Virus record (IMG/VR): IMGVR_UViG_2529293039_000013
DNA length: 50,040 nucleotides
Strand: one strand, 5' to 3'
Origin: a virus
Taxonomy: Duplodnaviria; Heunggongvirae; Uroviricota; Caudoviricetes
Below, piece by piece: positions 1 through 35,789 of this stretch (position 1 is its first letter; every line of letters begins with the position of its first letter). Below the pieces are notes generated by a model that had not been told where the DNA came from, ran no database searches, and saw only the letters and a program-made list of their open reading frames with translations. Both the position numbers and the translations under genes were made by a program.

Positions 1-420
1 ATGACGGATTATCAGCCATACAGGAAAGGAACTGTGCTTGCCCCAACTGGACCATGCAATCATCTTCATGTGATTTGTAATGATCCTGTTTATTACCCCG
101 TTAACGATTGTTATTGTGTTTTAGTTGTTAATATTTCTAGTATCAAGGATGGTGTCCCCCACGATCCGTCTTGCGTCTTGAATTCTGGTGATCATCGCTT
201 TATCAAGCATCCAAGTTATGTTGTTTACGCTGAAGCTATAATTTGGCGAGTGGATAACATGGTTAGAAAGCAGCGATCGGGTGAGATTTCTGTTCATGAT
301 GATATGCCAGAAGCTACATTCAATAGAATTCTGGACGGTTTTGATATCTCTGATGAAGTTACGCCAAAGAACCTTAAATTTAAAAATAAATATTGCGTAT
401 CATCTATTGATGATGAGTAA
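1..420 (+). CDS. hypothetical protein, no recognisable family; may be 5'-partial at window edge
   Basis: 139-codon ORF in track; lower GC than neighbouring phage genes; converges on minus-strand early operon. Confidence 0.35.
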   Translation: MTDYQPYRKGTVLAPTGPCNHLHVICNDPVYYPVNDCYCVLVVNISSIKDGVPHDPSCVLNSGDHRFIKHPSYVVYAEAIIWRVDNMVRKQRSGEISVHDDMPEATFNRILDGFDISDEVTPKNLKFKNKYCVSSIDDE

Positions 421-459
421 ACAACAGGAATTGTTTCGGTATAACTTCTGGAGTTTTCT

Positions 460-633
460 ATGGAAGATCAAAAAGCAACCAAGCCACAGGTTAAGTTCGA
501 CACAATGAAAGCATTCGTAGGTATGGGTGCTGCTGTTGAAGTTCTGATGAAGGCTGCTCCTAATGCGTTCACTCACGCTACTGTCTCTGGTAAAGAGCAG
601 CAGGGTAAGCTTCGTCGTCTCAAAGCAGCATGA
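460..633 (+). CDS. small hypothetical protein (57 aa)
   Basis: ATG preceded by GGAG; ORF ends about 20 nt before a hairpin terminator; below track length cut-off. Confidence 0.3.
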   Translation: MEDQKATKPQVKFDTMKAFVGMGAAVEVLMKAAPNAFTHATVSGKEQQGKLRRLKAA

Positions 634-652
634 TCATAGCTGGTGCTTTTTG

Positions 653-680
653 AAAACCCGCCTTCAGGCGGGTTTTTTCT
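653..680. terminator. bidirectional intrinsic terminator between convergent genes
   Basis: hairpin cccgcc-ttca-ggcggg flanked by an A-run upstream and a T-run downstream. Confidence 0.6.
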
Positions 681-989
681 TTAGTGATTTTCTTTGCCCT
701 TCTGTTTGACTGTTCTGACCTGTTCCCACTCGATACGTCCTTCTTCTCGCCTTTTGTCTATGTATTCCGCAAGATCCTGAATATTGATGCAACGTTTTGC
801 TTTTTGTGATGTGCCGATGCGATATGTTGGAACGGGCAACTTACAAGCGTTTGCTTTTGCTTCTGCCGTGGCTGGACTCATACCAAAGTACTTTTGGCTA
901 ACTGCTGAGAGTTCAATGTTTGGGGTATTGAATTCAGCCATCAGTAAAAACAAGGTGTTCATAATTTTCTCCATCAAAACCGGCTGCAC
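681..989 (-). CDS. excisionase-like DNA-binding protein (PrtN/Xis-like); start codon uncertain
   Basis: small basic protein at distal end of early-left operon; sequence recalls prophage excisionase-like family. Confidence 0.45.
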   Translation of the reverse strand: MQPVLMEKIMNTLFLLMAEFNTPNIELSAVSQKYFGMSPATAEAKANACKLPVPTYRIGTSQKAKRCINIQDLAEYIDKRREEGRIEWEQVRTVKQKGKENH

Positions 990-998
990 CCGGGAAAA

Positions 999-1574
999 TC
1001 ATAATTCTGTGCTGGTGGCAGGAATTAATTTCTGCCAGATAGCGGAAACATATTTTGCCTGATGACGGGCATCAGCCAGGGCGTTGTGCCGTTCGCCATC
1101 GAAAGGCATGTCCATTTTGGGGTCGAATCCGATGGAACGCCCAAGCGTAACGATCGTGCGTACATCGTGGTCATTCCAGTACGCCCACGGGCAGATTTGT
1201 CCTGCTCGCTCGTAAGCTCCACGTAAAATTACGTTGTCGAAGGTGGCCCCGTTACCCCAGACTTTTAAATATTTCGTATTGTCTGCGTGCCGGTTAATGA
1301 AATGGTTTAGTTCTGAGAGAGCATCGCTGATCGACAAAGTATCATCAATACAGATTGCAGCTCGCGCTTCAGGGCTTTGTTTCAACCACCACAGGATGGT
1401 ATCGCCGTCAGGTGTAGCTCCTTGCTTCATAGCACTGTCTAGGCTGACAACCGCATAGAATTCTTGTCCGATGTCTCCGGTTTCTGGAGTGAAGAACACC
1501 GCGCCAATGGAAACGATCGGTGCATCCTTATTTTTCCCCATCGTCTCAAGGTCGATCATTAAGTTGTTCATCAC
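999..1574 (-). CDS. phage 3'-5' exonuclease (DnaQ-like fold)
   Basis: N-terminal IDLETMG motif typical of DEDD exonucleases; ORF from track. Confidence 0.65.
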   Translation of the reverse strand: MMNNLMIDLETMGKNKDAPIVSIGAVFFTPETGDIGQEFYAVVSLDSAMKQGATPDGDTILWWLKQSPEARAAICIDDTLSISDALSELNHFINRHADNTKYLKVWGNGATFDNVILRGAYERAGQICPWAYWNDHDVRTIVTLGRSIGFDPKMDMPFDGERHNALADARHQAKYVSAIWQKLIPATSTEL

Positions 1575-2215
1575 TTCACCTCCTGCGGCGGTTCCGGTAG
1601 CGGCATCCAGTGAGTTGCTTGCTCAATACCATTACCCGGCTTAATCGTTGCATCTCCGCGCCGAAAGGTGCTTCCGGTATAGCGTGCGGAGCATATTAGC
1701 GGTTCAACCAGAGAGCTATCGAAATTCACCGAAATAAGCACGTTCTGGCCCTTTTCAGGCATTCGATCACTACAGCTTATCCAACCATCCGGAGTTACCG
1801 GAGAGTTGCCGGGTTCTTTAATGTGCAAGCGAGGCTCACCATCTTTTGGTTCAGGCCACTGGCGCTTCATGTTGATCTTCAATTTATCTTCCATAGCAGC
1901 GGTAATTTCAGCATCGCTGATGCCAGCACGGCGCTGTGCATCCCACAACAGAAACTGCATATCAGCCCACTCGCCAAGATCGTCTGGTTCGGCTGCGGCT
2001 TCCAGTGCCTCTTTTGAGAGATGTTTCAGCGGACCAATGGGGCCAACGCAGCCAAATGTGGAGTCAGACCATTTGGCATGCTCGTGGCGAATCTGTTCGC
2101 GTTCCAGTGATGCCAGTGCAATTCGTGCCAGTTCCATTTGTTCGCCACGAGTAAGTCCGTTATCAAGCGGATTTTTAATGAATAATTTGATACGTTCTTT
2201 GGTTATAGCGCTCAT
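1571..2215 (-). CDS. MazG-like nucleotide pyrophosphohydrolase domain protein with C-terminal DUF551-like region
   Basis: overlapping stop/start with neighbour; family recalled from prophage early regions. Confidence 0.5.
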   Translation of the reverse strand: MSAITKERIKLFIKNPLDNGLTRGEQMELARIALASLEREQIRHEHAKWSDSTFGCVGPIGPLKHLSKEALEAAAEPDDLGEWADMQFLLWDAQRRAGISDAEITAAMEDKLKINMKRQWPEPKDGEPRLHIKEPGNSPVTPDGWISCSDRMPEKGQNVLISVNFDSSLVEPLICSARYTGSTFRRGDATIKPGNGIEQATHWMPLPEPPQEVK

Positions 2216-2216
2216 A

Positions 2217-2897
2217 TCACTCTCCTTTGATGCGAATGCCAGCGGCGCGGATTGCAGCGATGACTTCAGAAACTTTGTATGCCATTACCGTTTGGTAATC
2301 ATCGTGATAATCTGTTCGATGAAGCATGCTGCTACGTTCCGGGAGCGATATTTCCCGAGCATCCAGTTCCTTAACGCGTTCCTCCAGTTCGTAGACCCTG
2401 CATTGTTCTCTATCATCAATCAGATATAACCCAAGACATTCGCTTTCTACCCAACCGCCAAAATCATGATCGTAACGCTCACATGAAAACTCACCGTCAC
2501 CGTCCTTTGTTGGAATGGTGTAACTATCTAATGGGCCACCATATGTCGGCACATTCCCCAATGTTGGATGCTCAATCCACATGAAAAATGCACGTCCGGT
2601 TATTGGGCAAATATCTGGCCGCCATTGGTTACGAACAGCCTTGGTTTCGGATAATTCTTCAGCGTGTTGTTTTACTTCCTCAAGCTCAACTCTCAGCTTC
2701 CCAACCGTAAGAGCAATATCCTCGTTCTCCTGGTCGCGGCGTTTGATGTATTGCTGGTTTCTTTCCCGTTCATCCAGCAGTTCCAGCACAATCGATGGTG
2801 TTACCAGCTCATGGAAAAGGTCCGCGTCAAATCCCCAGTCGTCATGCATTTCCTGCTCTGCCGCCTCACGCAGTGCCTGGTAATTAATTTCGCTCAC
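2217..2897 (-). CDS. Ea22-like family protein
   Basis: acidic coiled-coil protein in early-left operon; family assignment from memory. Confidence 0.5.
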   Translation of the reverse strand: MSEINYQALREAAEQEMHDDWGFDADLFHELVTPSIVLELLDERERNQQYIKRRDQENEDIALTVGKLRVELEEVKQHAEELSETKAVRNQWRPDICPITGRAFFMWIEHPTLGNVPTYGGPLDSYTIPTKDGDGEFSCERYDHDFGGWVESECLGLYLIDDREQCRVYELEERVKELDAREISLPERSSMLHRTDYHDDYQTVMAYKVSEVIAAIRAAGIRIKGE

Positions 2898-3532
2898 TGG
2901 TTGCCTCCTTTGCGAAGCTCAGCGGCGAAGGCTACTGCGTGATCATGATGTTCAAGCGTGTATGCACACTCCGCAAACATCTCCACGCCCTGCGCCCGGA
3001 CTTCAGCCAGGAAAGCATCGGTGGCTGGCGTTTCCCGTGAACGGTAAGACCAAACAATGTCGTCTGTTTCACTGGGTTCTTCATGAGAGCAATTTGGGCA
3101 GACAGCAGTACAACCAGCATGATCTTCTATGAGCATCTTCAGCCACGAGTTCTCCTCCGCCAGCGTCACGCGACTGGCCTCCAGTTCTGCTACGCGCTGT
3201 TTTGCAGCATCCAGTTCAATCGACAATTTTTCCAACTGCTCTTTATGCTTTTTATATTCCTGATATGCGTGCCAAGACTGACCTTTGCGCACACTATCAG
3301 TGATATCAGCAACCTGCTCTGGTGTTAGCGTGGTCAGTGGCTGTGCTGGGAAAATAAGCACTTTCCCGGAATCCCAATCAAAACCAGCATGAATTGACTG
3401 AACCTCAACTGAAGGTGTTGAACCAATGCTGCCAGGCGAATGAACAACGATCGTTACATCCATATCGCGACGATGGCTGTGGTTGTTGGACAAAATACGA
3501 TTCACCAACTCAGAAAATTTGGAGAATTTCAT
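2894..3532 (-). CDS. Ea22-like family protein (second copy)
   Basis: coiled-coil central region, cysteine pairs, overlapping stop/start with neighbours. Confidence 0.45.
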   Translation of the reverse strand: MKFSKFSELVNRILSNNHSHRRDMDVTIVVHSPGSIGSTPSVEVQSIHAGFDWDSGKVLIFPAQPLTTLTPEQVADITDSVRKGQSWHAYQEYKKHKEQLEKLSIELDAAKQRVAELEASRVTLAEENSWLKMLIEDHAGCTAVCPNCSHEEPSETDDIVWSYRSRETPATDAFLAEVRAQGVEMFAECAYTLEHHDHAVAFAAELRKGGNQ

Positions 3533-3540
3533 GCGGAGCC

Positions 3541-3951
3541 TCAGTATGTAAAATAGACAGTTGCCACGCCGTTATAGTGATCAAACGATACGGCATTTAC
3601 TTCGTAGCTGGCAGGGAGCTTCGATCCGAGAACGTATCCGGGCCACGTTTTCCATGGAATTTCTCTGCGCTCACTATCGCCATATACCGTACATCCCAGA
3701 GAGCCTACAGCTTCATTAGAACGCGTGCCGCACGTTATGAATCCCAGATTTTGCTTACTGCTCTTAATGGTGATTGGGTGAACGCTGGCTGATGCATTAG
3801 CAGCACGCTGTGCCTGTTGGTTTGCGATATTCGCAGAGTTCGCAGCAGCTACAGCAGCCGTAGTCGCGGCGGTAGAGGCTACAATAGCTGCTGAAGCATG
3901 CACTTGTTGGATATTCACCAACAATGCCGCGACAAAAATCATCTTCTTCAC
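3541..3951 (-). CDS. putative secreted protein with N-terminal signal peptide
   Basis: N-terminus MKKMIFVAALLVNIQQVHA resembles a Sec signal peptide; Ala/Asn-rich linker. Confidence 0.5.
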   Translation of the reverse strand: MKKMIFVAALLVNIQQVHASAAIVASTAATTAAVAAANSANIANQQAQRAANASASVHPITIKSSKQNLGFITCGTRSNEAVGSLGCTVYGDSERREIPWKTWPGYVLGSKLPASYEVNAVSFDHYNGVATVYFTY

Positions 3952-4298
3952 TTGTCAGCTCCTTTGCGAATCTGTTCCGCCCATTCTTCAAGGGATTTCT
4001 CCGCATATTCACCGGACAGGCCATCAATCGGGTACGGTTCATTAGCCAACTCTTCTTTCGCTGACAGAATCATGCGTGTAACGTCGAAAACTTCACGCAA
4101 AGACTTATTGATAAATCCGTGATTGAAAGCAGCAGCAAGACGGCTTGCGGTATAGTTAATACCCTCGTTGCGAGCCTCAGCACGTACTTCATCGAATTTA
4201 CGCACCAGATACTCAGCATTTGTTTCATTCACTTTCAGATCTCGCGGTACACATTTCCCGCGAAGAAACCCTTCCATTTCGAAAACATTCATGCGCAT
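3948..4298 (-). CDS. hypothetical protein
   Basis: ORF from track; start overlaps the upstream gene end. Confidence 0.45.
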   Translation of the reverse strand: MRMNVFEMEGFLRGKCVPRDLKVNETNAEYLVRKFDEVRAEARNEGINYTASRLAAAFNHGFINKSLREVFDVTRMILSAKEELANEPYPIDGLSGEYAEKSLEEWAEQIRKGADK

Positions 4299-4852
4299 TT
4301 GCGTAACTCCGATAACTCGTTAAAACGTTCCATAAACATCCCATAGGCATGGCCTGGCGACAGTGGAATAACTTTGAACATCTCTGTTGCCGGGATACCT
4401 TCCAGTACAGGCCAGAAAGAGCCATCATCAAGCCCGAGATCGCGGCGTTCGGTTGCCAGCATAATGAGATCGGCATATTTCACTGGCGTGCTCATAACAG
4501 GAGGTAACCCGTATTTCTCACGGATTACGGCGTCTATTTTTTCTTCCATCTGTTTATAGTCAGGAAGAAGGCGTTTCAGTGGCGCGGGGATGTCCTGACA
4601 ATACGCTTCTGTTGCATCATGCATTAACGCTTCAAAAGCAAACTCCTCCGGAACCAGTTTGCTGCAAAGCACCGCATGTTGGGCGACGCTGTAGAAGTGT
4701 GAAAGATGCCCTGCAAAGCGACAGATATTTGAGAGGGAAACTGCGATATCGTTAATCACGATGTCGTCTTTATTTATCCTGTCATAATAAAAATGCTTCC
4801 CGGAAAAAGTTTTAATAAATGACATTTTGTTCTCCACGTATATGCGCTGCAC
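4289..4852 (-). CDS. HD-domain phosphohydrolase (YfdR-like 5'-deoxynucleotidase family)
   Basis: H...HD metal-binding motif (AQHAVLCSK...MHDATEAY). Confidence 0.65.
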   Translation of the reverse strand: MQRIYVENKMSFIKTFSGKHFYYDRINKDDIVINDIAVSLSNICRFAGHLSHFYSVAQHAVLCSKLVPEEFAFEALMHDATEAYCQDIPAPLKRLLPDYKQMEEKIDAVIREKYGLPPVMSTPVKYADLIMLATERRDLGLDDGSFWPVLEGIPATEMFKVIPLSPGHAYGMFMERFNELSELRKCA

Positions 4853-4952
4853 CGCGCTGAATTCTGGTAAAAGGAAGCCCTCACCATCCGGTGATTATTG
4901 AGTTAATTACGTTTCCATAAATGCCCCCGCAGGGGCATTTGCAGTAATGAAA

Positions 4953-5777
4953 TCAGGCGGTGAAAGTACCAATAAAGGTTTCGACTTTGCTGTCTTTGAA
5001 TTTCTCAACAAGCAGATCACGAAATTCGTTAGCCATTTCTTCCTGCACTGCTTCCAGCTGAATAATGCGCAGAACCAGTACAGGGCGATCACCAGTGATA
5101 ATGCTGAGTCGTAATTTAAATGGACGTTCTTTCAGGCCTTCAAACGGAACGCATTTAAATTCAAATGCCACTGGCATAATGTCTTTGGTCTTCGCTTCGA
5201 CAGACTCCATCAGGGAGCGTTTGCCGCTGAAGTCATTGTCTTCAAAATCAGCAGTCTGGTTCGCTTCAATTGTGATTTTACGGACTGCCGCAGCCGCTTT
5301 TGTTGCCTGAATGGCGTCACCATTAGCATCAAAGCCCACAAGGTAGTCGGCCCAGTCTTCAATCCATTCTGCCAGTGACTTCTGGGAGTTACGCTCGCCG
5401 TTAACAGACAACAGAGCAGAGAACGGTGCTGTCTTTTTCAGTTTGAGGGTGGCGGTGTTATCTGCGTGACCTGGTTCATCAATAGTACCCAGGTTAAGCA
5501 CACTGACGGCTCGCATATTATCGGCATCGATAAAGCAGCGGGTGCCTTCATCTGCAAGATCTTTAGAATAACGGGTAAAGTCATCGATGCTGGCAGTGGA
5601 AAGCGCACCACGGAAACGGAAGCGATTTAAATTAAATTTTTCCAGATCATGAATGCGGAAATTCTCAGGCAATGCCACAGCATCGGCACCAATCTTACTG
5701 ATAATTTCATTAACACCCTGAGCAGAAATAAGGGCATGGATTTGATTAATTGCGGTTGCGTCTAAGTTCTGAGACAT
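4953..5777 (-). CDS. YfdQ-like protein (DUF2303 family)
   Basis: 274-aa ORF matching my recollection of E. coli CPS-53 prophage YfdQ; adjacent to YfdR-like gene. Confidence 0.6.
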
Positions 5778-5842
5778 AATAAGTCCTCACTATATAAAGA
5801 TATTCAGTGATGAGATAAATAATCAGTTAATTAAGAACGATA

Positions 5843-6205
5843 TTAATGACCTGCTGCGCGTAGTTTTCCGTCAGGTTCACCGGCAAGAGTCAGTAATTGT
5901 CCCTGGTCTTCCTGCAGAATAGTCAGGCGACCACCGCGATTGACATACATCGGTGTTTCGGTGGTGTCTTCTTCGGAAATTTTCCCGCGGTTAGTCGGGC
6001 GAACATATGAGAGTTTGTGTTTGATTTTCACACGGTTCTCATCAAATGGTTCGATTTCCAGGTTGAGCGAGACCTTACCTTTGGTTTTCGTGTTCATCAC
6101 ACCGGAAGCGACTTCACTGAGAGCTGCGCCGATTTTGGTTTCAAATACGCCGCCGTCCAGCTCCCCGATAAATGCCTGCACATCAGTACTGCGTTCGCTA
6201 GCCAT
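5843..6205 (-). CDS. hypothetical protein, first gene of early-left operon
   Basis: internal start MASERSTD preceded by GAGGAG; track ORF extends further upstream without RBS support. Confidence 0.5.
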   Translation of the reverse strand: MASERSTDVQAFIGELDGGVFETKIGAALSEVASGVMNTKTKGKVSLNLEIEPFDENRVKIKHKLSYVRPTNRGKISEEDTTETPMYVNRGGRLTILQEDQGQLLTLAGEPDGKLRAAGH

Positions 6206-6547
6206 TTTGCTGCTCCTCATCATATCGACCCTGCAAGGTCGGTTAGTTTCTCCACAAAACAGAGAAGAACACCTGCGGTGGCAGCCGCCCGGATGGATTG
6301 GGTTATGAGCCCGTCGTCCGGTGATGTTCTTCTCTGTTTTGTAAAAAGAGCGGTACCAGCCGGAAGCAAGTGTACAAACTGGTACCGCCAAAGCAGTGGC
6401 TGTTGTGGTGACCGGTGCTGATCTCCGGCTTGCGGTTATTTCAGACTCTCACGGGCGTTTAATTGCCCCGCCGAACAGCTCTTTTCCGCAATAGCTGCAA
6501 TGTCTTTCGCGCATCAGCCTGCGCATTCACCACAACTCTAAAAACAA

Positions 6548-6600
6548 ATGTAGGATATCCAACATGCGAGTGTCAAGAGTTTATGTTGGTTATCCTACAT
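6548..6600 (-). promoter_or_regulatory. leftward early promoter (PL-like) with two 18-bp operator palindromes
   Basis: minus-strand TTGACA, 17-nt spacer, CTACAT; operators atgtaggatatccaacat and atgttggttatcctacat. Confidence 0.5.
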
Positions 6601-6616
6601 AAAAAGATAGGCTCAT

Positions 6617-6642
6617 AAAAAAACCGGGGATACCCCGGTTTT
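6617..6642 (-). terminator. intrinsic terminator downstream of repressor gene
   Basis: hairpin ccgggg-ata-ccccgg with flanking A and T runs, just 3' of cI stop. Confidence 0.5.
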
Positions 6643-6662
6643 GCGATAGTGAGGAAGATGTG

Positions 6663-7316
6663 TCAAAAATCCATTATTACTTGTTTGACAAGACCAACTA
6701 TTCTGCAGTTCTCACCGCATTCAATAGTTTTATAGTTAGGATTTAGTGGGACGAGATACCTGTTCGGCCAGTCCTCAACAAATTTTTTGAGTGTCGCTTC
6801 TTGCCCACCATTGATATGGGCAACAACGATTTTTCCGTTAATACACTCTGTATCAATAATATCTGGCTCTACGATAACGATAGAACCTTCTGGTATCGAT
6901 GGTGAGCCGAGGGGATTGGTCATTGAATCACCACGGACCCGTAGTGCAAATGCCATTTCTGATACAAGGGCGGTAGTATAAACCCACTCTTCAGCATCTT
7001 CTTTCCTGACACCAGGCTCCGTCATTGTCCATGAACCCGCCTGAACCCACGAGATTAGGGGGACTTTTTTAACTGCGAATATTTCAGGTTTTAGATTTAT
7101 CTTTGGTTCAGGCGAGCCTTTTCCGCTAACAAGCCACAGAGGATCGCATTTAAGTGCGTTGGCTAGGGCTTGAAGGTTGGCTCCATTTGGTTGGTAGTCG
7201 TCCTTTTCCCATCCAGTAACCGTGACACGGTTCACACCAGTCAAATCAGCCAGTGCTTGTTGTGTCAGGTTCAGTTCTTTTCGCCTTTGGCGAATACGAT
7301 CACTCATGTTCATCAT
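6663..7316 (-). CDS. cI: CI-type phage repressor (HTH domain plus S24 LexA-like peptidase domain)
   Basis: N-terminal HTH (LTQQALADLTGVNRVTVTGWE), C-terminal Ser/Lys autocleavage domain (GDSM...K). Confidence 0.85.
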   Translation of the reverse strand: MMNMSDRIRQRRKELNLTQQALADLTGVNRVTVTGWEKDDYQPNGANLQALANALKCDPLWLVSGKGSPEPKINLKPEIFAVKKVPLISWVQAGSWTMTEPGVRKEDAEEWVYTTALVSEMAFALRVRGDSMTNPLGSPSIPEGSIVIVEPDIIDTECINGKIVVAHINGGQEATLKKFVEDWPNRYLVPLNPNYKTIECGENCRIVGLVKQVIMDF

Positions 7317-7323
7317 GTAGGCA

Positions 7324-7385
7324 ATCCTACCACATGCCCATGTAGGATTCTTGACATTGGCATGTTGGATATCCTACATTTCTGC
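7324..7385 (+). promoter_or_regulatory. OR/PR-like region: rightward promoter overlapping operators
   Basis: TTGACA, 17-nt spacer, CTACAT on plus strand; operator atgttggatatcctacat; split palindrome atcctac...gtaggat. Confidence 0.55.
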
Positions 7386-7411
7386 TTAACGTAATTTAAC
7401 GGGAGACAGAA

Positions 7412-7609
7412 ATGCGGAAATCCGACGTGATTAATTATTTCGGCGGAGTTTGTAAAACCGCCGAAGCCCTAGGTATTAAGCATCCGTCTGTTTCAGAGTG
7501 GCCTGAGATTATTCCTGAAGGCCGAGCGTACCAGTTAGAAAAAATTACTAACGGGAAACTGAAAGTTGACGTGTCTTTATATCAAAAGACTAACAGTGCT
7601 GCGGCATAA
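7412..7609 (+). CDS. cro: Cro-like DNA-binding regulator
   Basis: 65-aa protein divergent from cI across the operator region. Confidence 0.7.
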   Translation: MRKSDVINYFGGVCKTAEALGIKHPSVSEWPEIIPEGRAYQLEKITNGKLKVDVSLYQKTNSAAA

Positions 7610-7636
7610 AAACACCACAGAAATGAGGAATTAACC

Positions 7637-8221
7637 GTGGGTAAAGAACCTGAATGGAAAGTTGATAAACAACCAGCATGGCTGGTGGCAGCAATACGAA
7701 GAACGATTGCTGATTTACCTCATGGCTATGAGGAAGCAGCAGAAATTCTTGGTTTGTATAAATCTGATGATATCACCCCAGCGAAAGATCAATTGCATAA
7801 CAGACTGCGTAGCGGTGGGGATCAAATTTTTCCACTTGAGTGGGCCATGGTTTTACAGGATGCCAGTGGTACCAGGCATGTAACGGATGCGATAGCGCGT
7901 CGTAGTAATGGGGTGTTTGTGCCGCTGGTGGACATTGATGACATTGACAATGGTGACATTAATCAGCGGCTGATGGAGTCAATAGAATGGATTGGCAAGC
8001 ATTCCCAGTACTTACGCAAGGCAACTGCTGATGGAGTTATTGACCAGGCTGAGCGTGAGCAAATCGAAGAGAACAGCTACCAAGTAATGGCGAAGTGGCA
8101 GGAGCATTTAACACTGTTATTTCGTGTTTTTTGTGCACCGGAAAAGAGTAACGCCCGCGAGTGTGCAGCTCCGGGCGTCGTGGCGTCGATTGCTTCTGGT
8201 TGTGGAGAAACTAACGCATGA
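7637..8221 (+). CDS. putative CII-like regulatory protein (family uncertain)
   Basis: position immediately after cro; GTG start; stop overlaps next gene start (ATGA). Confidence 0.35.
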   Translation: MGKEPEWKVDKQPAWLVAAIRRTIADLPHGYEEAAEILGLYKSDDITPAKDQLHNRLRSGGDQIFPLEWAMVLQDASGTRHVTDAIARRSNGVFVPLVDIDDIDNGDINQRLMESIEWIGKHSQYLRKATADGVIDQAEREQIEENSYQVMAKWQEHLTLLFRVFCAPEKSNARECAAPGVVASIASGCGETNA

Positions 8222-9378
8222 ACAGTTTAACGGCAAATAACCGTTTGTCGCAACAGCTGGTGGTCAGCGTCGCTGAACACCTGTTGTTACGGCATGAATG
8301 CAGATTACCAAATCACCTGGCTGTAAGTAACCACAGAGAACTTTACCTGACTGTGGGGGGCGAGTTGTGCAGGAACTTAACCGCTGGTTTCGTGACGGAA
8401 GAGGGCTTTATGTCCATGTTATTCGTTGGGAGCCAGAAACACAGCGCGTTATCTATCTTCGCAAAGACTACCCGCATGAGTGCTTTAGTCCTTTGTGGAA
8501 ATTCAGGCGTGATTTTGTTGAGTGTGAAGGACCACCAGCATATTGATTCTGCAATTCCGGGACGTTACACTGCTCAGGCACCTTATAAAGCGGGTGCCGG
8601 GATTGGCGTCCTGAAATTGTCAACGGCGATGTATGACGCGCCAGCGTCTTTTTTATCGTCCGCATTTGCTCACATCCAGATTATGGTGGGCTGGGCGGGG
8701 GCACCGAAAGGTGCGCCGGTCTCCGTTGACGCCGGTTACGCCAACCCCGTCCAGTTCACCACCAGTGAAATTGGCGTTTCCGGTGGTGGAAGTTTTTCAC
8801 TGTCAACGGAGGCTGCCATCATGGCTACGATCCCAGCCCTCACTCAACCTGAAATCACCATTGACAACGGCCAGGCCGTTACCACTTCTTTGGCTGTTGC
8901 CAACTTCTTCTCCAAGCGTCACGACGATGTGCTGAAAAAGATCCGCACTCTGGATTGTTCCCCAGAGTTTTGTGCCCGCAATTTTGCGGAGACATCGATT
9001 TCGGTAAATCAACCGAACGGTGGTACACGCAAGCTCCCTTGCTATCAAATCACACGAGACGGTTTTGCGTTTCTTGCTATGGGTTTCACGGGTAAACGTG
9101 CTGCCCGGTTCAAAGAGGCATACATAAATGCCTTTAACCAGATGGAGAAACAGCTTTCAAAGCCCGCTGTACCGAGCGACGTTGCACATAACGCCAGCGT
9201 TCTCTGTTCCTACATTTCATCAATTCATCAGGTCTGGCTGCAGCAGCTTTATCCTATGTTGGCAAAAGCCGAATCTCCGCTGGCTGTTAGCTTATATGAC
9301 TATATTAATGATGCTTCGGCGCTGGCCAGTCTCATAAATTTGTCGCTGAACCCTTCAGAGGTAAGGGGGCGCAAATGA
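8218..9378 (+). CDS. Rha-family phage regulatory protein with about 200-aa N-terminal extension
   Basis: Rha-like motif (TTSLAVANFFSKRHDDVLKKIR) in C-terminal half; internal ATG at 8821 has strong GGAGG RBS. Confidence 0.55.
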   Translation: MNSLTANNRLSQQLVVSVAEHLLLRHECRLPNHLAVSNHRELYLTVGGELCRNLTAGFVTEEGFMSMLFVGSQKHSALSIFAKTTRMSALVLCGNSGVILLSVKDHQHIDSAIPGRYTAQAPYKAGAGIGVLKLSTAMYDAPASFLSSAFAHIQIMVGWAGAPKGAPVSVDAGYANPVQFTTSEIGVSGGGSFSLSTEAAIMATIPALTQPEITIDNGQAVTTSLAVANFFSKRHDDVLKKIRTLDCSPEFCARNFAETSISVNQPNGGTRKLPCYQITRDGFAFLAMGFTGKRAARFKEAYINAFNQMEKQLSKPAVPSDVAHNASVLCSYISSIHQVWLQQLYPMLAKAESPLAVSLYDYINDASALASLINLSLNPSEVRGRK

Positions 9379-22668: not shown

Positions 22669-23217
22669 ATGAACGTCAATAAGAAAAAACTGGCCGATAT
22701 TTTTGGCGTTGATGTCAGGACCATCACCGCCTGGCAGAGTCAGGGGTTACCACTAGTTTCTGGTGGAGGGAAAGGGACTGAATCAGTTTTTGATACAACT
22801 GCTGCCATTCAGTGGTATGCGCAGAGGGAAGCTGATATTGAAAACGAAAAACTCCGTAAAGAGAGCGAGGATTTGAGGGCTGCCAGCGAATCAGACCTTC
22901 AGCCCGGCACCATTGATTACGAACGTTACCGACTGACGAAGGCACAGGCCGATGCACAGGAGCTGAAAAATGCTCGTGAGGAAGGCCTTGTCCTCGAGAC
23001 GGAGTTATTTACCTACATCTTTCAGCGAGTGGCACAGAATATATCAGGGATCCTTGTCCGTGTCCCTCAGACACTGCAGCGTAAATACCCTGATATATCA
23101 CCCGCACATCTTGATGCTGTGAAAACTGAAATCGCGAAAGCATCCGATGTGGCTTCTGAAGCCGGTGAGAATGTGCGCAGGTGGATTGATGATTTCAGAC
23201 GAACTGAGGGCGGCTAA
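22669..23217 (+). CDS. terminase small subunit (lambda Nu1-like)
   Basis: N-terminus [28 protein letters not shown] matches lambda Nu1 from memory. Confidence 0.85.
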
Positions 23218-25116
23218 TTCTGCAGGAGCGATAGCAACCGGCCTCCTTGCGCTAAAAATTCCTGTCCCTCTGACGACAGTTCAGTGGGCAGATCGACATT
23301 ATTACCTTCCGAAAGAGTCATCTTACACCCCGGGGCGGTGGGAAACACTGCCGTTTCAGGTTGCCATCATGAACAGCATGGGGAATGACCGGATCCGCAC
23401 TGTTAATCTGATTAAATCTGCCCGTGTTGGTTATACAAAGATGTTGCTGGGAGTGGAGGCTTATTTTATTGAGCATAAATCACGCAACAGCCTTCTTTTC
23501 CAGCCCACGGATTCTGCTGCTGAAGATTTTATGAAATCTCATGTGGAACCCACGATCAGGGATGTGCCGGTTTTACTCGATCTTGCACCGTGGTTTGGGC
23601 GTAAACATCGTGATAATACCCTCACGCTGAAACGCTTTTCATCGGGCGTCGGTTTCTGGTGCCTGGGCGGCGCTGCCGCCAAAAACTACCGTGAAAAATC
23701 CGTGGACGTGGTCTGCTATGACGAACTTTCCTCGTTCGAGCCGGATGTCGAAAAAGAGGGCTCGCCAACCCTGCTGGGGGATAAGCGTATTGAGGGGTCG
23801 GTGTGGCCAAAATCCATTCGCGGCTCGACGCCTAAAATCAAAGGCACCTGCCAGATCGAAAAAGCGGCCAACGAGTCGGCGCATTTCATGCGTTTTTATG
23901 TGCCCTGCCCGCACTGTGGGGAGGCGCAGTATCTGAAATTTGGCGATGAGTCCACGCCTTTTGGGCTTAAATGGGAGAAGGACAGTCCCGAAAGCGTTTT
24001 CTACCTCTGTGAACATCATGGCTGCGTGATCCATCAGTCTGAGCTTGACCAGAACAACGGGCGGTGGATCTGTGAAAACACGGGCATGTGGACCCGTGAC
24101 GGTCTGACGTTTTTCAGCGCCCGGGGTGATGAAATTCCGCCGCCGCGCTCCATCACGTTCCATATCTGGACGGCGTACAGTCCGTTCACCACCTGGGTAC
24201 AGATTGTCTATGACTGGCTGGATGCACTGAAAGATCCCAACGGCCTGAAAACCTTTGTGAACACCACGCTGGGCGAGACCTGGGAAGAGGCCGTGGGCGA
24301 AAAACTCGATCACCAGGTACTGATGGATAAGGTGGTGCGTTACACGGCGGCGGTGCCTGCCCGGGTGGTTTATCTGACGGCGGGCATTGACTCGCAGCGA
24401 AACCGTTTTGAGATGTATGTCTGGGGATGGGCTCCGGGAGAGGAAGCTTTTCTGGTGGATAAAATCATCATTATGGGGCGTCCTGATGAGGAAGAGACGC
24501 TGTTACGTGTGGATGCGGCGATCACAAAAAATACCGCCATGCGGATGGCACCGAAATGACTATTTCCCGTGTCTGCTGGGACACCGGGGGGATCGATGGT
24601 GAAATTGTTTATCAGAGATCAAAAAAACACGGTGTTTTCCGGGTGCTGCCGGTAAAAGGCGCATCTGTCTATGGCAAGCCGGTGATCACCATGCCAAAAA
24701 CCCGCAATCAGCGGGGCGTGTATCTGTGTGAAGTGGGAACGGACACCGCAAAAGAAATTCTCTATGCCCGTATGAAAGCCGATCCCTCGCCTGCGGATGA
24801 AGCCACGTCGTATGCCATCCGTTTTCCTGATGATCCGGAGATTTTTTCGCAGACAGAGGCGCAGCAACTGGTGGCGGAAGAGCTGGTGGAGAAGTGGGAA
24901 AAAGGAAAGATGCGTCTGCTGTGGGATAACAAAAAGCGGCGTAACGAAGCGCTGGACTGCCTGGTGTATGCCTACGCGGCATTACGTGTGTCCGTGCAAC
25001 GCTGGCAGCTTGATCTGGCTGTACTGGCAAAATCCCGGGAAGAAGAGACGACCCGGCCAACCCTGAAAGAACTGGCAGCGAAGCTGTCCGGAGGAGTGAA
25101 TGGTTACAGTCGCTGA
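23189..25116 (+). pseudogene. terminase large subunit (lambda A-like), interrupted by a frameshift
   Basis: track ORFs 23147-24559 and 24556-25116 are in different frames; both match lambda gpA; junction in an A-run. Confidence 0.8.
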
Positions 25117-25306
25117 ACTGCAGGCGCTGCGTCAGGCGCGCCTTGATTTATTAACCGGTAAACGGGTGGTGTCTGTCCAGAAAGATGGTCGCAGAATTGA
25201 ATATACGGCGGCTTCTCTGGATGAGCTTAACCGGGCGATCAATGATGCGGAGTCGGTACTGGGGACAACCCGGCGTCGCCGTCGTCCGCTGGGAGTGAGG
25301 TTATGA
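25100..25306 (+). CDS. head-tail joining protein W
   Basis: 68 aa; LTGKRVVSVQKDGRRIEYTAAS matches lambda gpW from memory. Confidence 0.8.
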   Translation: MVTVAELQALRQARLDLLTGKRVVSVQKDGRRIEYTAASLDELNRAINDAESVLGTTRRRRRPLGVRL

Positions 25307-26896
25307 AACGAACGCCTGTCCTGATTGATGTGAACGGCGTTCCGCTTCGTGAGAGTCTCAGCTACAACGGGGGCGGTGCAGGATTTGGCGGGCAAATGGC
25401 GGAGTGGTTGCCACCGGCGCAGAGTGCCGATGCGGCCCTGCTGCCCGCGTTGCGTCTGGGGAATGCCCGGGCAGATGATCTGGTGCGCAATAACGGAATA
25501 GCGGCCAATGCGGTGGCCCTGCATAAGGATCACATTGTCGGGCATATGTTTCTTATCAGCTACCGTCCGAACTGGCGCTGGCTGGGGATGCGGGAGACCG
25601 CAGCAAAAAGCTTTGTCGATGAGGTGGAGGCGGCCTGGTCGGAATACGCCGAAGGGATGTCTGGCGAGATCGACGTGGAAGGAAAACGCACGTTCACGGA
25701 ATTTATCCGTGAAGGTGTGGGCGTTCATGCGTTTAACGGCGAAATCTTTGTGCAGCCGGTCTGGGATACGGAAACCACGCAGTTATTCCGTACGCGTTTT
25801 AAAGCCGTGAGTCCGAAACGGGTGGACACGCCAGGACACGGTATGGGGAACCGTTTTCTGCGGGCCGGGGTGGAGGTCGATCGATATGGCCGTGCCGTTG
25901 CGTACCATATCTGTGAGGATGATTTTCCGTTCTCCGGGAGTGGACGATGGGAACGGATCCCGCGTGAACTTCCCACCGGGCGTCCGGCCATGCTGCATAT
26001 TTTCGAGCCGGTAGAGGACGGGCAGACCCGTGGGGCCAACCAGTTTTACAGCGTCATGGAACGGCTGAAGATGCTCGATTCCCTGCAGGCAACACAGCTT
26101 CAGTCGGCCATTGTGAAAGCCATGTATGCAGCGACGATTGAAAGTGACCTTGATACCGAAAAGGCCTTTGAATATATCGCCGGTGCGCCGCAGGGGCAGA
26201 AGGATAATCCGCTTATTAATATTCTGGAGAAGTTCTCCAGCTGGTATGACACGAATAACGTGACGCTGGGTGGTGTCAAAATTCCGCACCTTTTCCCCGG
26301 GGATGATCTGAAACTACAGACTGCGCAGGATTCAGACAATGGATTTTCGGCGCTTGAACAGGCGCTGCTGCGGTATATCGCCGCCGGTTCTTGGCGTTTC
26401 CTACGAACAGTTGTCCCGTGATTACTCGAAGGTCAGTTATTCAAGTGCCAGGGCCTCTGCCAATGAGTCGTGGCGCTATTTTATGGGGCGGCGAAAATTT
26501 ATTGCGGCCCGGCTGGCCACGCAGATGTTTTCCTGCTGGCTGGAAGAGGCACTTCTTCGGGGGATTATCCGTCCGCCACGGGCGCGTTTTGATTTTTATC
26601 AGGCGCGATCAGCCTGGTCACGGGCAGAGTGGATTGGTGCCGGAAGAATGGCCATTGACGGGCTCAAGGAGGTTCAGGAATCGGTGATGCGCATTGAGGC
26701 CGGACTGAGCACGTATGAGAAAGAGCTGGCGCTGATGGGCGAGGATTATCAGGACATTTTCCGCCAGCAGGTCAGGGAATCTGCAGAGCGGCAAAAAGCC
26801 GGACTCTCACGTCCGGTGTGGATAGCGCAGGCGTATCAGCAGCAGATAGCGGAGAGTCGCAGGCCGGAAGAGGAGACAACACCCCGTGAGACGTAA
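25303..26896 (+). pseudogene. portal protein (lambda B-like), interrupted by a frameshift
   Basis: track ORFs 25303-26421 and 26339-26896 in different frames; junction at LLRYIAAG / LGVSYEQLS. Confidence 0.8.
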
Positions 26897-28393
26897 TCTT
26901 TCACACATTATTGCCGCAGCATTCAATGAACCGCTGCTTCTGGAGCCCGCCTATGCGCGGGTTTTCTTTTGCGCGCTCGGGCGCGAGATGGGGGCAGCAA
27001 GTCTTTCGGTACCACAGCAGCAGGTACAGCTTGATGCTCCCGGAATGCTGGCTGAAACGGACGAGTACATGGCCGGAGGTAAACGACCGGCCCGTGTTTA
27101 CCGGGTGGTGAACGGTATTGCGGTACTGCCGGTGACCGGCACGCTGGTGCACCGGCTGGGGGGGATGCGGCCATTTTCCGGAATGACAGGCTATGACGGC
27201 ATTGTCGCCTGTCTTCAGCAGGCAATGGCGGATAGCCAGGTGCGGGGCGTACTGCTGGGACATTGACAGTCCGGGCGGGCAGGCCGCCGGCGCGTTTGAC
27301 TGCGCTGACATGATTTACCGCCTCCGTCAGCAGAAGCCGGTCTGGGCACTGTAGCAATGACACGGCCTGTTCTGCAGCCATGCTGCTGGCGTCGGCCTGC
27401 TCCCGACGGCTGGTTACCCAGACATCCCGTATCGGCTCCATTGGCGTGATGATGAGCCATGTCAGCTATGCCGGTCATCTGGCGCAGGCCGGTGTGGATA
27501 TCACGCTGATTTACTCAGGGGCGCACAAGGTGGATGGCAATCAGTTTGAAGCCTTACCGGCAGAGGTTCGCCAGGACATGCAGCAGCGCATTGATGCGGC
27601 GCGCCGGATGTTTGCCGAAAAAGTGGCCATGTTTACCGGTCTGTCTGTTGATGCCGTCACGGGAACAGAGGCCGCCGTTTTTGAAGGTCAGTCCGGCATT
27701 GATGCCGGGCTGGCGGATGAATTAGTCAATGCGTCGGATGCCATCAGTGTGATGGCCACGGCGCTGAACAGTAATGTCAGAGGAGGCACTATGCCGCAAT
27801 TAACTGCAACGGAAGCCGCCGCGCAGGAGAACCAGCGAGTGATGGGGATCCTGACATGCCAGGAAGCGAAAGGACGTGAACAGCTTGCCACGATGCTGGC
27901 AGGACAACAGGGCATGAGCGTTGAACAGGCCCGGGCGATTCTGGCCGCGGCGGCACCGCAGCAGCCGGTGGCATCCACGCAGAGTGAAGCCGATCGCATT
28001 ATGGCGTGTGAAGAAGCGAACGGTCGTGAACAACTGGCGGCAACGCTGGCGGCGATGCCGGAGATGACGGTGGAAAAAGCCCGCCCGATCCTGGCTGCTT
28101 CACCGCAGGCGGATGCCGGACCCTCACTCCGTGATCAGATCATGGCACTGGATGAGGCAAAAGGGGCTGAGGCGCAGGCTGAACAGCTGGCTGCCTGCCC
28201 GGGAATGACTGTGGAGAGCGCCCGGGCTGTGCTGGCTGCGGGATCAGGTAAGGCAGAACCGGTCTCTGCATCCACAACCGCCCTGTTTGAACGCATCATG
28301 GCGAACCATTCACCGGCTGCGGTACAGGGTGGCGTGCCACAGACGTCAGCAGACGGTGATGCGGACGTGAAAATGCTCATGGCCATGCCATGA
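26886..28393 (+). pseudogene. head maturation protease/scaffold C (lambda C/Nu3-like), interrupted by two frameshifts
   Basis: N-part ends 27266, C-part starts 27380; conserved middle segment reads in the third frame. Confidence 0.75.
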
Positions 28394-32790: not shown

Positions 32791-33230
32791 ATTTTGCCCT
32801 CAGACTGGCGCGTGAGATGGGGAGGCCTGACTGGCGCGCCATGCTTGCCGGGATGACATCCACCGAATATGCCGACTGGCGACATTTTTACCGTACGCAT
32901 TATTTTCTCGATACCCAACTGGATATGCATTTTTCCGGGCTGACGTACGCCGTACTCAGCCTGTTTTTTTGCGATCCGGATATGCATCCCTCTGATTTCA
33001 GTCTGCTTGCCCCCCGGCGTGAGGAAGCGCAGACGGAGATGCCGGATGAGGAAAAAATGCTGATGCAGAAAGCGGCAGGACTTGCCGGAGGCGTCCGGTT
33101 TGGTGGGGACGGAGGGCGTGAGATTTTATCGTCTGCGGATGTGGCGGATGTCAGCGAGGATGATGTCGCATTAATGATGGCTTCAGCGGGGATTTCCGGA
33201 GGTGTGAGATATGTCCCAGCCGGTTGGTGA
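32359..33230 (+). CDS. tail assembly chaperone G-T fusion made by programmed -1 frameshift
   Basis: slippery G GGA AAG near end of G; -1 frame continues as T-like sequence (FDGELNFALRLAREMGRPDWRAMLAG) to 33230. Confidence 0.65.
32766..32772 (+). promoter_or_regulatory. programmed -1 ribosomal frameshift slippery heptamer GGGAAAG
   Basis: canonical lambda G-T slippery sequence in the expected frame. Confidence 0.6.
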
Positions 33231-35789
33231 TCTTGTTATTGACCTGAGTCTGGATGCGGTCCGTTTCGATGAGCAGATGAGCCGGGTAAGGCGTCATTTT
33301 TCCGGACTGGAGACTGACGCCAGAAAAACCGCCGGTGTTGTTGAGCAGAACCTGAGTCGTCAGGCGCTGGCTGCACAAAAAGCCGGGATTTCCGTCGGGC
33401 AGTATAAAGCGGCCATGCGAACCCTGCCCGCACAGTTTACGGATATCGCCACGCAGCTTGCCGGTGGTCAGAATCCCTGGCTGATCCTGCTGCAACAGGG
33501 CGGTCAGGTGAAGGACTCCTTCGGCGGGATGATCCCCATGCTCAGGGGACTTGCCGGTGCGATCACCCTGCCGATGGTCGGGGTCACCTCGCTGGCGGTG
33601 GCGACAGGTGCGCTGGCGTACGCCTGGTACCAGGGGGATTCCACGCTTTCAGCGTTTAATAAAACCCTGGTTCTTTCCGGTAATCAGTCCGGACTGACTG
33701 CCGATCGCATGCTGACGCTCTCCAGAGCCGGACAGGCCGCAGGGCTGACGTTTAACCAGGCGAGTGAGTCACTGGCAGCCCTGGTGAATGCCGGTGTGCG
33801 TGGTGGTGAACAGTTTGATGCCATCAACCAGAGTGTCGCGCGTTTTGCTTCTGCATCCGGTGTGGAGGTGGACAAGGTTGCAGAGGCTTTCGGAAAACTG
33901 ACTACCGACCCGACGTCGGGACTGATGGCGATGGCGCGCCAGTTCCGTAACGTGACGGCAGAGCAGATTGCGTATGTTGCACAGCTGCAGCGTTCCGGAG
34001 ACGAGGCCGGGGCATTGCAGGCGGCGAACGATATCGCCACGAAAGGCTTTGATGAGCAGACCCGTCGCCTGAAAGAAAACATGGGAACACTGGAGACCTG
34101 GGCGGATAAAACAGGGAAGGCATTCAAATCGATGTGGGATGCCATTCTGGATATCGGTCGTCCTGAGTCCTCAGCGGATATGCTCGCCAGTGCACAGAAG
34201 GCATTTGATGAGGCGGATAAAAAATGGCAGTGGTACCAGAGCCGGAGCCAGCGCCGGGGAAAACCGCCTCTTTCCGGGCCAACCTTCAGGGCGCATGGAA
34301 TGACCGGGAAAATGCCCGTCTGGGGCTGGCAGCGGCCACGCTGCAGTCGGATATGGAAAAAGCCGGTGAACTGGCCGCCAGGGACCGGGCCGAACGGGAC
34401 GCATCACAGCTGAAGTATACCGGAGAGGCGCAGAAGGCGTATGAGCGTCTGCTGACGCCGCTGGAGAAATATACCGCCCGTCAGGAAGAACTGAATAAGG
34501 CCCTGAAAGACGGGAAAATCCTGCAGGCGGATTACAACACGCTGATGGCGGCGGCGAAAAAGGATTATGAATCGACGCTGAAAAAGCCGAAGTCGTCAGG
34601 AGTCAAAGTGTCAGCCGGTGAGCGTCAGGAAGACCAGGCGCATGCTGCCCTGCTGGCGCTTGAAACCGAGCTCCGGACGCTGGAAAAACACAGCGGTGCG
34701 AATGAGAAAATCAGCCAGCAGCGTCGCGATTTATGGAAAGCGGAAAATCAGTATGCGGTCCTGAAAGAGGCAGCCACGAAACGGCAGTTATCTGAGCAGG
34801 AAAAATCCCTGCTGACCCATGAGAAAGAGACGCTGGAGTACAAACGCCAGCTGGCTGAGCTGGGAGACAAAGTTGAACACCAGAAACGGCTGAATGAGCT
34901 GGCACAGCAGGCTGCGCGGTTTGAACAGCAGCAGAGTGCGAAGCAGGCGGCAATCAGTGCCCAGGCGCGGGGCCTCACCGACCGTCAGGTGCAGCGGGAG
35001 TCGGAAGAGCAGCGCCTTCGTGACGTGTACGGTGATAATCCGGATGCGCTGGCGAAGGCCACATCTGCACTGAAGAACACCTGGTCTGCGGAGGAGCAGC
35101 TTCGTGGAAGCTGGATGGCCGGTCTGAAGTCCGGCTGGGGCGAGTGGGCAGAAAGTGCGACGGACAGTTTTTCGCAGGTTAAAAGCGTGGCCACGCAGAC
35201 CTTTGACGGTATTGCACAGAATATGGCAGCGATGCTGACCGGCAGCGAACAGAGCTGGCGTGGTTTCACCCGTTCTGTGCTCTCCATGCTGACAGAGATT
35301 TTTCTGAAGCAGGCCATGGTGGGGATTGTCGGGAGTATTGGCAGCGCCATGGGTGGTGCTTTCGGTGGTGGGGCGTCTGCCTCCACGGGGACGGCCATTC
35401 AGGCTGCGGCGGCGAACTTCCATTTCGCGACCGGAGGATTTACGGGAACCGGTGGCAAATACGAACCTGCCGGTATTGTCCACCGCGGGGAGTTTGTCTT
35501 CACGAAGGAGGCAACCAGCCGGATTGGCGTCGGCAACCTGTATCGTCTGATGCGCGGGTATGCGGAAGGTGGTTATGTGGGCGGTGCCGGAAGTCCGGCG
35601 CAGATGCGGCGGGCGGAAGGCATTAGTTTTAATCAGAACAATCACGTGGTGATTCAGAACGACGGCACCAACGGACAGGCGGGGCCGCAGCTGATGAAGG
35701 CGGTGTATGACATGGCCCGCAAGGGGGCGCAGGATGAGATTCAGGCGCAGATGCGTGATGGCGGCGTCTTTTCCGGAGGCAGGCGATGA
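33211..35789 (+). pseudogene. tail tape measure protein H, interrupted by a frameshift
   Basis: track ORFs 33211-34413 and 34224-35789 in different frames; both match lambda gpH; junction at an A-run. Confidence 0.8.

Follow-up and report, generated by a model that had tools for sequence, protein, structure and literature searches.

The head protease/scaffold gene C of a lambdoid prophage in Escherichia coli DEC2D is split over three reading frames by two single-nucleotide insertions; the split is real in the deposited record but, judging from comparisons with related copies, most probably absent from the bacterium. We consider it likely that both insertions are base-calling or consensus errors in the DEC2D draft rather than mutations of the organism. 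The window analyzed here, a 50,040-nt stretch of prophage DNA, is an exact substring of contig AIFC01000020.1 of that 2012 draft (GCA_000249215.2).

The C gene occupies positions 26886-28393 of the window, in a prophage whose head module is closest to that of phage 21. A sequence-only reading of the window had taken it for a lambda C-type gene, and this identity was borne out: the gene is a homologue of lambda C and phage 21 gene 5, with 98.4% nucleotide identity to phage 21 genes 5/6 over its whole length and up to 99.7% identity to many E. coli prophage genes annotated as S49 family peptidases. With both extra bases deleted, C encodes a 501-aa S49 protease/scaffold protein in which the peptidase domain PF01343 can be found at residues 146-293 (E = 7e-35); the third-frame fragment alone still matches this domain (E = 2e-30). 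A tblastn map, together with annotated homologous loci, gives the gene order terL - W - portal - C - D - E. The GTG start of C coincides with the start annotated for the homologue L001 and for phage 21. As in phage 21 genes 5/6 and lambda C/Nu3, the gene is located between the portal and decoration genes, its start codon overlaps the portal stop, and an S49 domain is followed by a scaffold domain.

We found sister prophages by exact sequence look-up of the neighbouring FI protein. Three copies, L011 (in a 5.1-Mb contig of GCA_900448265.1), L018 (AIEZ01000021.1) and L019 (AFJB01000009.1), share 99.7-99.8% identity with the window over 15-18 kb, and the L011 copy extended to the right end of the window (L031) is 99.96% identical. 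C is a continuous 501-aa reading frame in all three sisters. The repaired C protein of the window is 100% identical to that of L011, L019 and the annotated homologue L005, and thus to WP_001253987.1, the S49 family peptidase annotated in L005 and found in E. coli lambdoid prophages such as those of strains 14EC001 and 14EC017, from which the deposited gene differs by the two inserted bases only. Relative to phage 21 gp5, the repaired protein has 9 differing residues out of 501.

Exactly two single-nucleotide insertions distinguish the window C gene from its intact homologues L001, L003 and phage 21 (L004) in a MAFFT alignment, and the same two were recovered in a four-way alignment with the three sister copies (Table 1). 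They lie 96 nt apart and, because each shifts the frame by +1, the original frame is never restored. The insertion at 27257 is missing from L001-L005, L011, L018 and L019, while the insertion at 27353 is located outside any homopolymer and creates a TAG stop codon. The resulting split into three frames is a deterministic fact of the deposited record, in which chance is not at issue; C is continuous in every sister copy, and in the window once the two bases are removed. The sequence-only reading had described this layout correctly in most respects: the first frame ends in VRGVLLGH-TGA at a GGG run (27257-27259), the conserved segment DIDSPGGQAAGAFDCADMIYRLRQQKPVWAL follows in a second-frame ORF (27193..27354), and NDTACSAAMLLASACSRRLVTQT is read in a third frame, which extends to 28393. 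Its placing of the whole LLDIDSPGG motif in the second frame needs correction, since the 'LL' belongs to the first frame and the second reads CWDIDSPGG. The further claim that the gene is truly broken probably does not hold for the organism: the sister assemblies give one continuous 501-aa C ORF, an outcome that the reading itself had named as counting against it.

Table 1. Positions in the window of the C gene segments, the single-nucleotide changes private to the DEC2D copy, and the genes of the IS21-family element.
Feature	Position	Strand	Details
C, N-terminal fragment	26886..27266	+	126 aa; GTG start, TGA 27264-27266; 100% identical to residues 1-124 of intact C
C, middle segment (residues about 124-155)	27256..27354	+	second frame; ends at TAG 27352-27354; tblastn q124-155, frame 1 of the window
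C, C-terminal part (residues 157-501)	27356..28393	+	third frame; 100% identity; bulk of the S49 domain followed by the scaffold domain
C, Ser162 codon (TCT), predicted S49 nucleophile	27371-27373	+	aligned to the 'MAASGG' Ser of Bacillus subtilis SppA (3rst)
Nested Nu3/phage-21-gene-6-type scaffold ORF	27780..28393	+	RBS GAGGAGG 27780-27786; ATG 27791; intact; 200 aa
C, 1-nt insertion (G)	27257	+	CTGG to CTGGG (GG to GGG); codon 124, inside LLDIDSPGG motif; private
C, 1-nt insertion (A)	27353	+	TGTGC to TGTAGC; CTGTGCAAT to CTGTAGCAAT; codon 156; private
terL, 1-nt deletion	24523	+	AA to A; private; splits terL (23147-24559 and 24556-25116)
Portal gene, 1-nt insertion	26388	+	T to TT; private; splits portal (25303-26421 and 26339-26896)
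Tail-tip gene J, 1-nt deletion	41671	+	A6 to A5; private; splits J (38992-42467)
istA	43269-44291		340 aa
istB	44288-45070		260 aa

If the deposited sequence is taken literally, the damage is limited to the protease. In the third-frame ORF the first ATG (27380) encodes Met165, and the predicted nucleophile Ser162 lies upstream of it and downstream of both frameshifts, so that with breaks at codons 124 and 156 no product could combine the N-terminal region with the catalytic serine. The nested in-frame scaffold ORF in the 3' part of C, with its own ribosome-binding site and start codon, is downstream of both insertions and intact; phage 21 has a ribosome-binding site and gene 6 scaffolding CDS annotated at the equivalent position (L004 4894-4898 and 4904-5506). 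The sequence-only statement that the protease/scaffold gene is disabled was therefore right about the protease and wrong about the scaffold, and even if the breaks were real it would overstate their effect. Within the scaffold domain, three tandem repeats of roughly 35-40 aa each can be seen at 27830-28260 (EAKGREQLATMLAGQQGMSVEQARAILAAA, EANGREQLAATLAAMPEMTVEKARPILAAS and EAKGAEAQAEQLAACPGMTVESARAVLAAG), probably the counterparts of the features that the phage 21 record M81255 labels 'Tri box'. In the relative L020, C is 404 aa long and apparently lacks part of this repeat region.

The assignment of Ser162 comes from an alignment of C residues 77-290 with SppA, the structural archetype of the S49 family (PDB 3rst, 4kwb and 3bf0; E = 5e-16), in which it falls on the serine of the 'MAASGG' motif, the SppA nucleophile. 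Unlike SppA, the phage protein is extended at its N terminus and carries a scaffold domain at its C terminus. It also has a tyrosine where SppA has the lysine of 'IKSG', the general base, and the alignment therefore gives no second catalytic residue.

Single-nucleotide changes private to the window are not limited to C. Between positions 22690 and 50040 (about 27 kb), the window differs from the GCA_900448265.1 sister by nine substitutions and five single-base indels, and all five private indels break large morphogenesis genes. The other genes affected are intact in sister copies: terL (642 aa) in L011, the portal gene (530 aa) in L011 and L018, and J (1158 aa) in L011/L031, L018 and L019. In the four-way alignment the private substitutions of the window are at 26013, 27122, 33541, 39111 and 39114, and five of the eight private changes in this region fall within 1.34 kb (26013-27353), a clustering that suggests a locally poor consensus. 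Assuming a neutral indel-to-substitution ratio of about 1:10, the excess of indels in the four-way overlap region has a Poisson probability of 0.014. Six frameshifts were found in the late genes (about 23 kb) and none in the early, lysis and cargo genes (about 11.7 kb). No private change occurs at positions 1-6536, but with only about 1.2 expected there at the observed rate, this contrast is statistically uninformative.

Two of the sisters are drafts whose assembly accessions neighbour that of DEC2D, and they carry private indels of their own that differ between drafts. The AFJB01 draft (L019) has five within 520 bp (P = 2e-6), with its portal gene in four ORFs, and the AIEZ01 draft (L018) has two in the same module, while the four-way alignment revealed no private indels in the 5.1-Mb contig. 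Across the three drafts, 10 of the 12 private indels are changes of one base in the length of short mononucleotide runs, mostly runs of 1-3 nt. The AIEZ01 copy also has short patches of clustered substitutions at window-equivalent positions 25356-25695 and 33708-33738, which resemble the outcome of recombination or of paralogous prophage copies having been mixed.

The insertions in C were not recovered from any other assembly. A scan of 5,426 complete E. coli genomes, which gave 1,876 matching records, recovered neither of them; the best match around the insertions is 219 of 221 bases (99.1%). Nor did 30-mers across either insertion have exact matches in IMG/VR, JGI metagenomes or the GTDB species representatives. 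Only one contig, AIFC01000020.1, is on record with the exact sequence of the 126-aa truncated product, which is deposited as EHU45790.1, 'head-tail preconnector protein GP5 [Escherichia coli DEC2D]'. Two further contigs (L009 and L010) carry an exact match to the 337-aa third-frame ORF and are uninformative because they begin at window-equivalent positions 27371 and 27376, downstream of both insertions. Since the insertions are absent from L011, L018, L019 and all scanned collections, the reproducibility that would mark a real pseudogene was not observed. The deposited gene likewise departs from phage 21 in that its frame is broken at codons 124 and 156 by insertions absent from every homologue.

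Several lines of evidence favour sequencing artefact as the origin of the two insertions. The ratio of five indels to nine substitutions between near-identical sisters is far above the neutral ratio, and C, though nominally dead, carries no other amino acid change, its repaired product being 100% identical to that of the sister; this is not the spectrum of neutral decay. Neighbouring-accession drafts have their own, different indels while the 5.1-Mb contig has none, and changes of one base in short runs are the signature of run-length miscalls, whereas replication slippage favours long runs. The pattern resembles the spurious frameshifts of pyrosequencing-era drafts, which are isolated single-base indels, mostly in mononucleotide runs, that occur in one assembly alone, vary among sister drafts and interrupt ORFs otherwise conserved without change. 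The insertion at 27353 departs from this pattern: it is not beside an identical base and is not a run-length change, which makes it less typical of such miscalls. The 454 chemistry tends to miscount run lengths, giving spurious indels. Other E. coli drafts from the same laboratory, centre and year were sequenced with 454 Titanium only and assembled with Celera 6.0 (PMC3491183), and we infer that the DEC2D draft was produced with the same chemistry. The cause of the insertions would presumably lie either in this chemistry or in the assembly, and the same error explanation would apply to the private indels in terL, portal and J. The real gene would then be an ordinary intact gene of the lambda C/phage 21 gene 5 type, whose product joins an S49 serine protease at the N terminus to a scaffold domain at the C terminus, with a scaffold protein (Nu3/gp6 type) also made from the internal in-frame start.

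A different reading is that the frameshifts are real, very recent and strain-specific pseudogenising mutations in an already defective prophage, which we regard as unlikely. EHEC and EPEC commonly carry defective lambdoid prophages that have scattered frameshifts, and the present prophage appears defective for real-looking reasons that would make extra frameshifts tolerable. A frameshift at 34259 in the tape-measure gene H is common to four independent assemblies (the window, L011, L018 and L019); being shared, it looks real and marks the lineage as defective. The sister in the 5.1-Mb contig also shares with the window an IS21 insertion, located between lom and the tail-fibre gene. Together these lesions suggest that the prophage is probably non-inducible as a complete phage, so that further lesions would be neutral. 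The character of the 27353 insertion also fits real decay, as do the O157 prophage copies in two complete genomes (L002 and L003), whose annotations mark frameshifts in terL, portal or C. Against this stand the indel excess over a 99.96%-identical sister, the lack of any amino acid change in the rest of C, the position of most indels outside the long runs that slippage favours, the separate sets of private indels in three neighbouring-accession drafts beside none in the 5.1-Mb contig, and a truncated product on record from no other assembly. If the decay were nevertheless real, DEC2D would make no head protease, with the catalytic serine missing from the 126-aa N-terminal fragment and the third-frame ORF opening only at Met165, while the nested scaffold protein could still be made; the prophage would be one more defective lambdoid prophage among the many known in EPEC and EHEC. 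Less probable again, and in our view improbable, is that five real private frameshifts record targeted domestication, with very rapid, indel-biased loss of terL, portal, protease and J in one clone and retention of the nested scaffold gene and the NleG-family/EspW effector cargo. We give almost no credence to the idea that the ribosome bypasses both breaks by programmed +1 frameshifting near CAT-TGA and CTG-TAG and so makes a near-native gpC. An in-frame stop does follow each insertion within 0-2 codons, and shifting by +1 at that point would bring back the downstream frame at the cost of one or two changed residues, but chance alone is expected to place a stop shortly after a frameshift. Thousands of homologues, including the 99.96%-identical sisters, are single-frame, and two independent recoding sites arising in one strain would be implausible. 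Neither site has a CUU-UGA-C motif or a Shine-Dalgarno sequence 3 nt upstream, and the P-site codons CAU and CUG are predicted to be unable to re-pair in the +1 frame. The arrangement thus differs from that of prfB, as the split frame is not conserved and the shift motif is absent at both sites. Programmed frameshifting and phase variation were both rejected, there being no conserved split, slippery or stimulatory motif or long repeat tract.

With artefact as the favoured origin, the broken genes in AIFC01000020.1 should not be used as evidence of pseudogenes or prophage decay without read-level confirmation, and they serve as a quality flag for the draft. On the evidence presented here, the same caution applies to the AIEZ01 and AFJB01 drafts. 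The question of real versus artefactual frameshifts also extends to other copies of this module. In the O157 copies L002 (NZ_CP044145) and L003 (NZ_AP018488), the positions of the frameshifts in terL, portal or C differ between strains. Six assemblies have a 1507-base match to C, one base longer than the intact gene; L002, which we examined among these, has an extra G in a G-run at window-equivalent position 27157.

Elsewhere in the prophage, the frameshift in tape-measure gene H (33211-35789) is the one reproducible defect; the gene is split by a 1-nt deletion (GGGGAAAACC), and intact relatives have one base more. The IS21-family element (about 43183-45170) is also present in L031, and its first 982 bases recur, 100% identical, in the same genome, where they truncate a different prophage (L022). 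The early region (1-9605) matches a prophage of GCA_900448265.1 located by zur/dinF/lexA/plsB at about 3.82 Mb (98.2%, with a different immunity region), and the late region (22268-50040) matches a prophage of the same assembly located by potB/phoQ at about 0.57-0.61 Mb (99.96%). This makes the contig of the draft a true mosaic prophage or else a chimera joined via lambdoid sequence common to both. The gene sodC (38334-38858), lying between tail genes I and J, encodes a Cu/Zn superoxide dismutase. The right end of the window (46871-50040) carries two NleG-family (DUF1076) ORFs, one of which is N-terminally truncated relative to L005, together with EspW and a gene annotated by RefSeq in L005 as 'bfpT-regulated chaperone' (Pfam IpaB_EvcA). 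The virulence cargo genes of the prophage are all intact.
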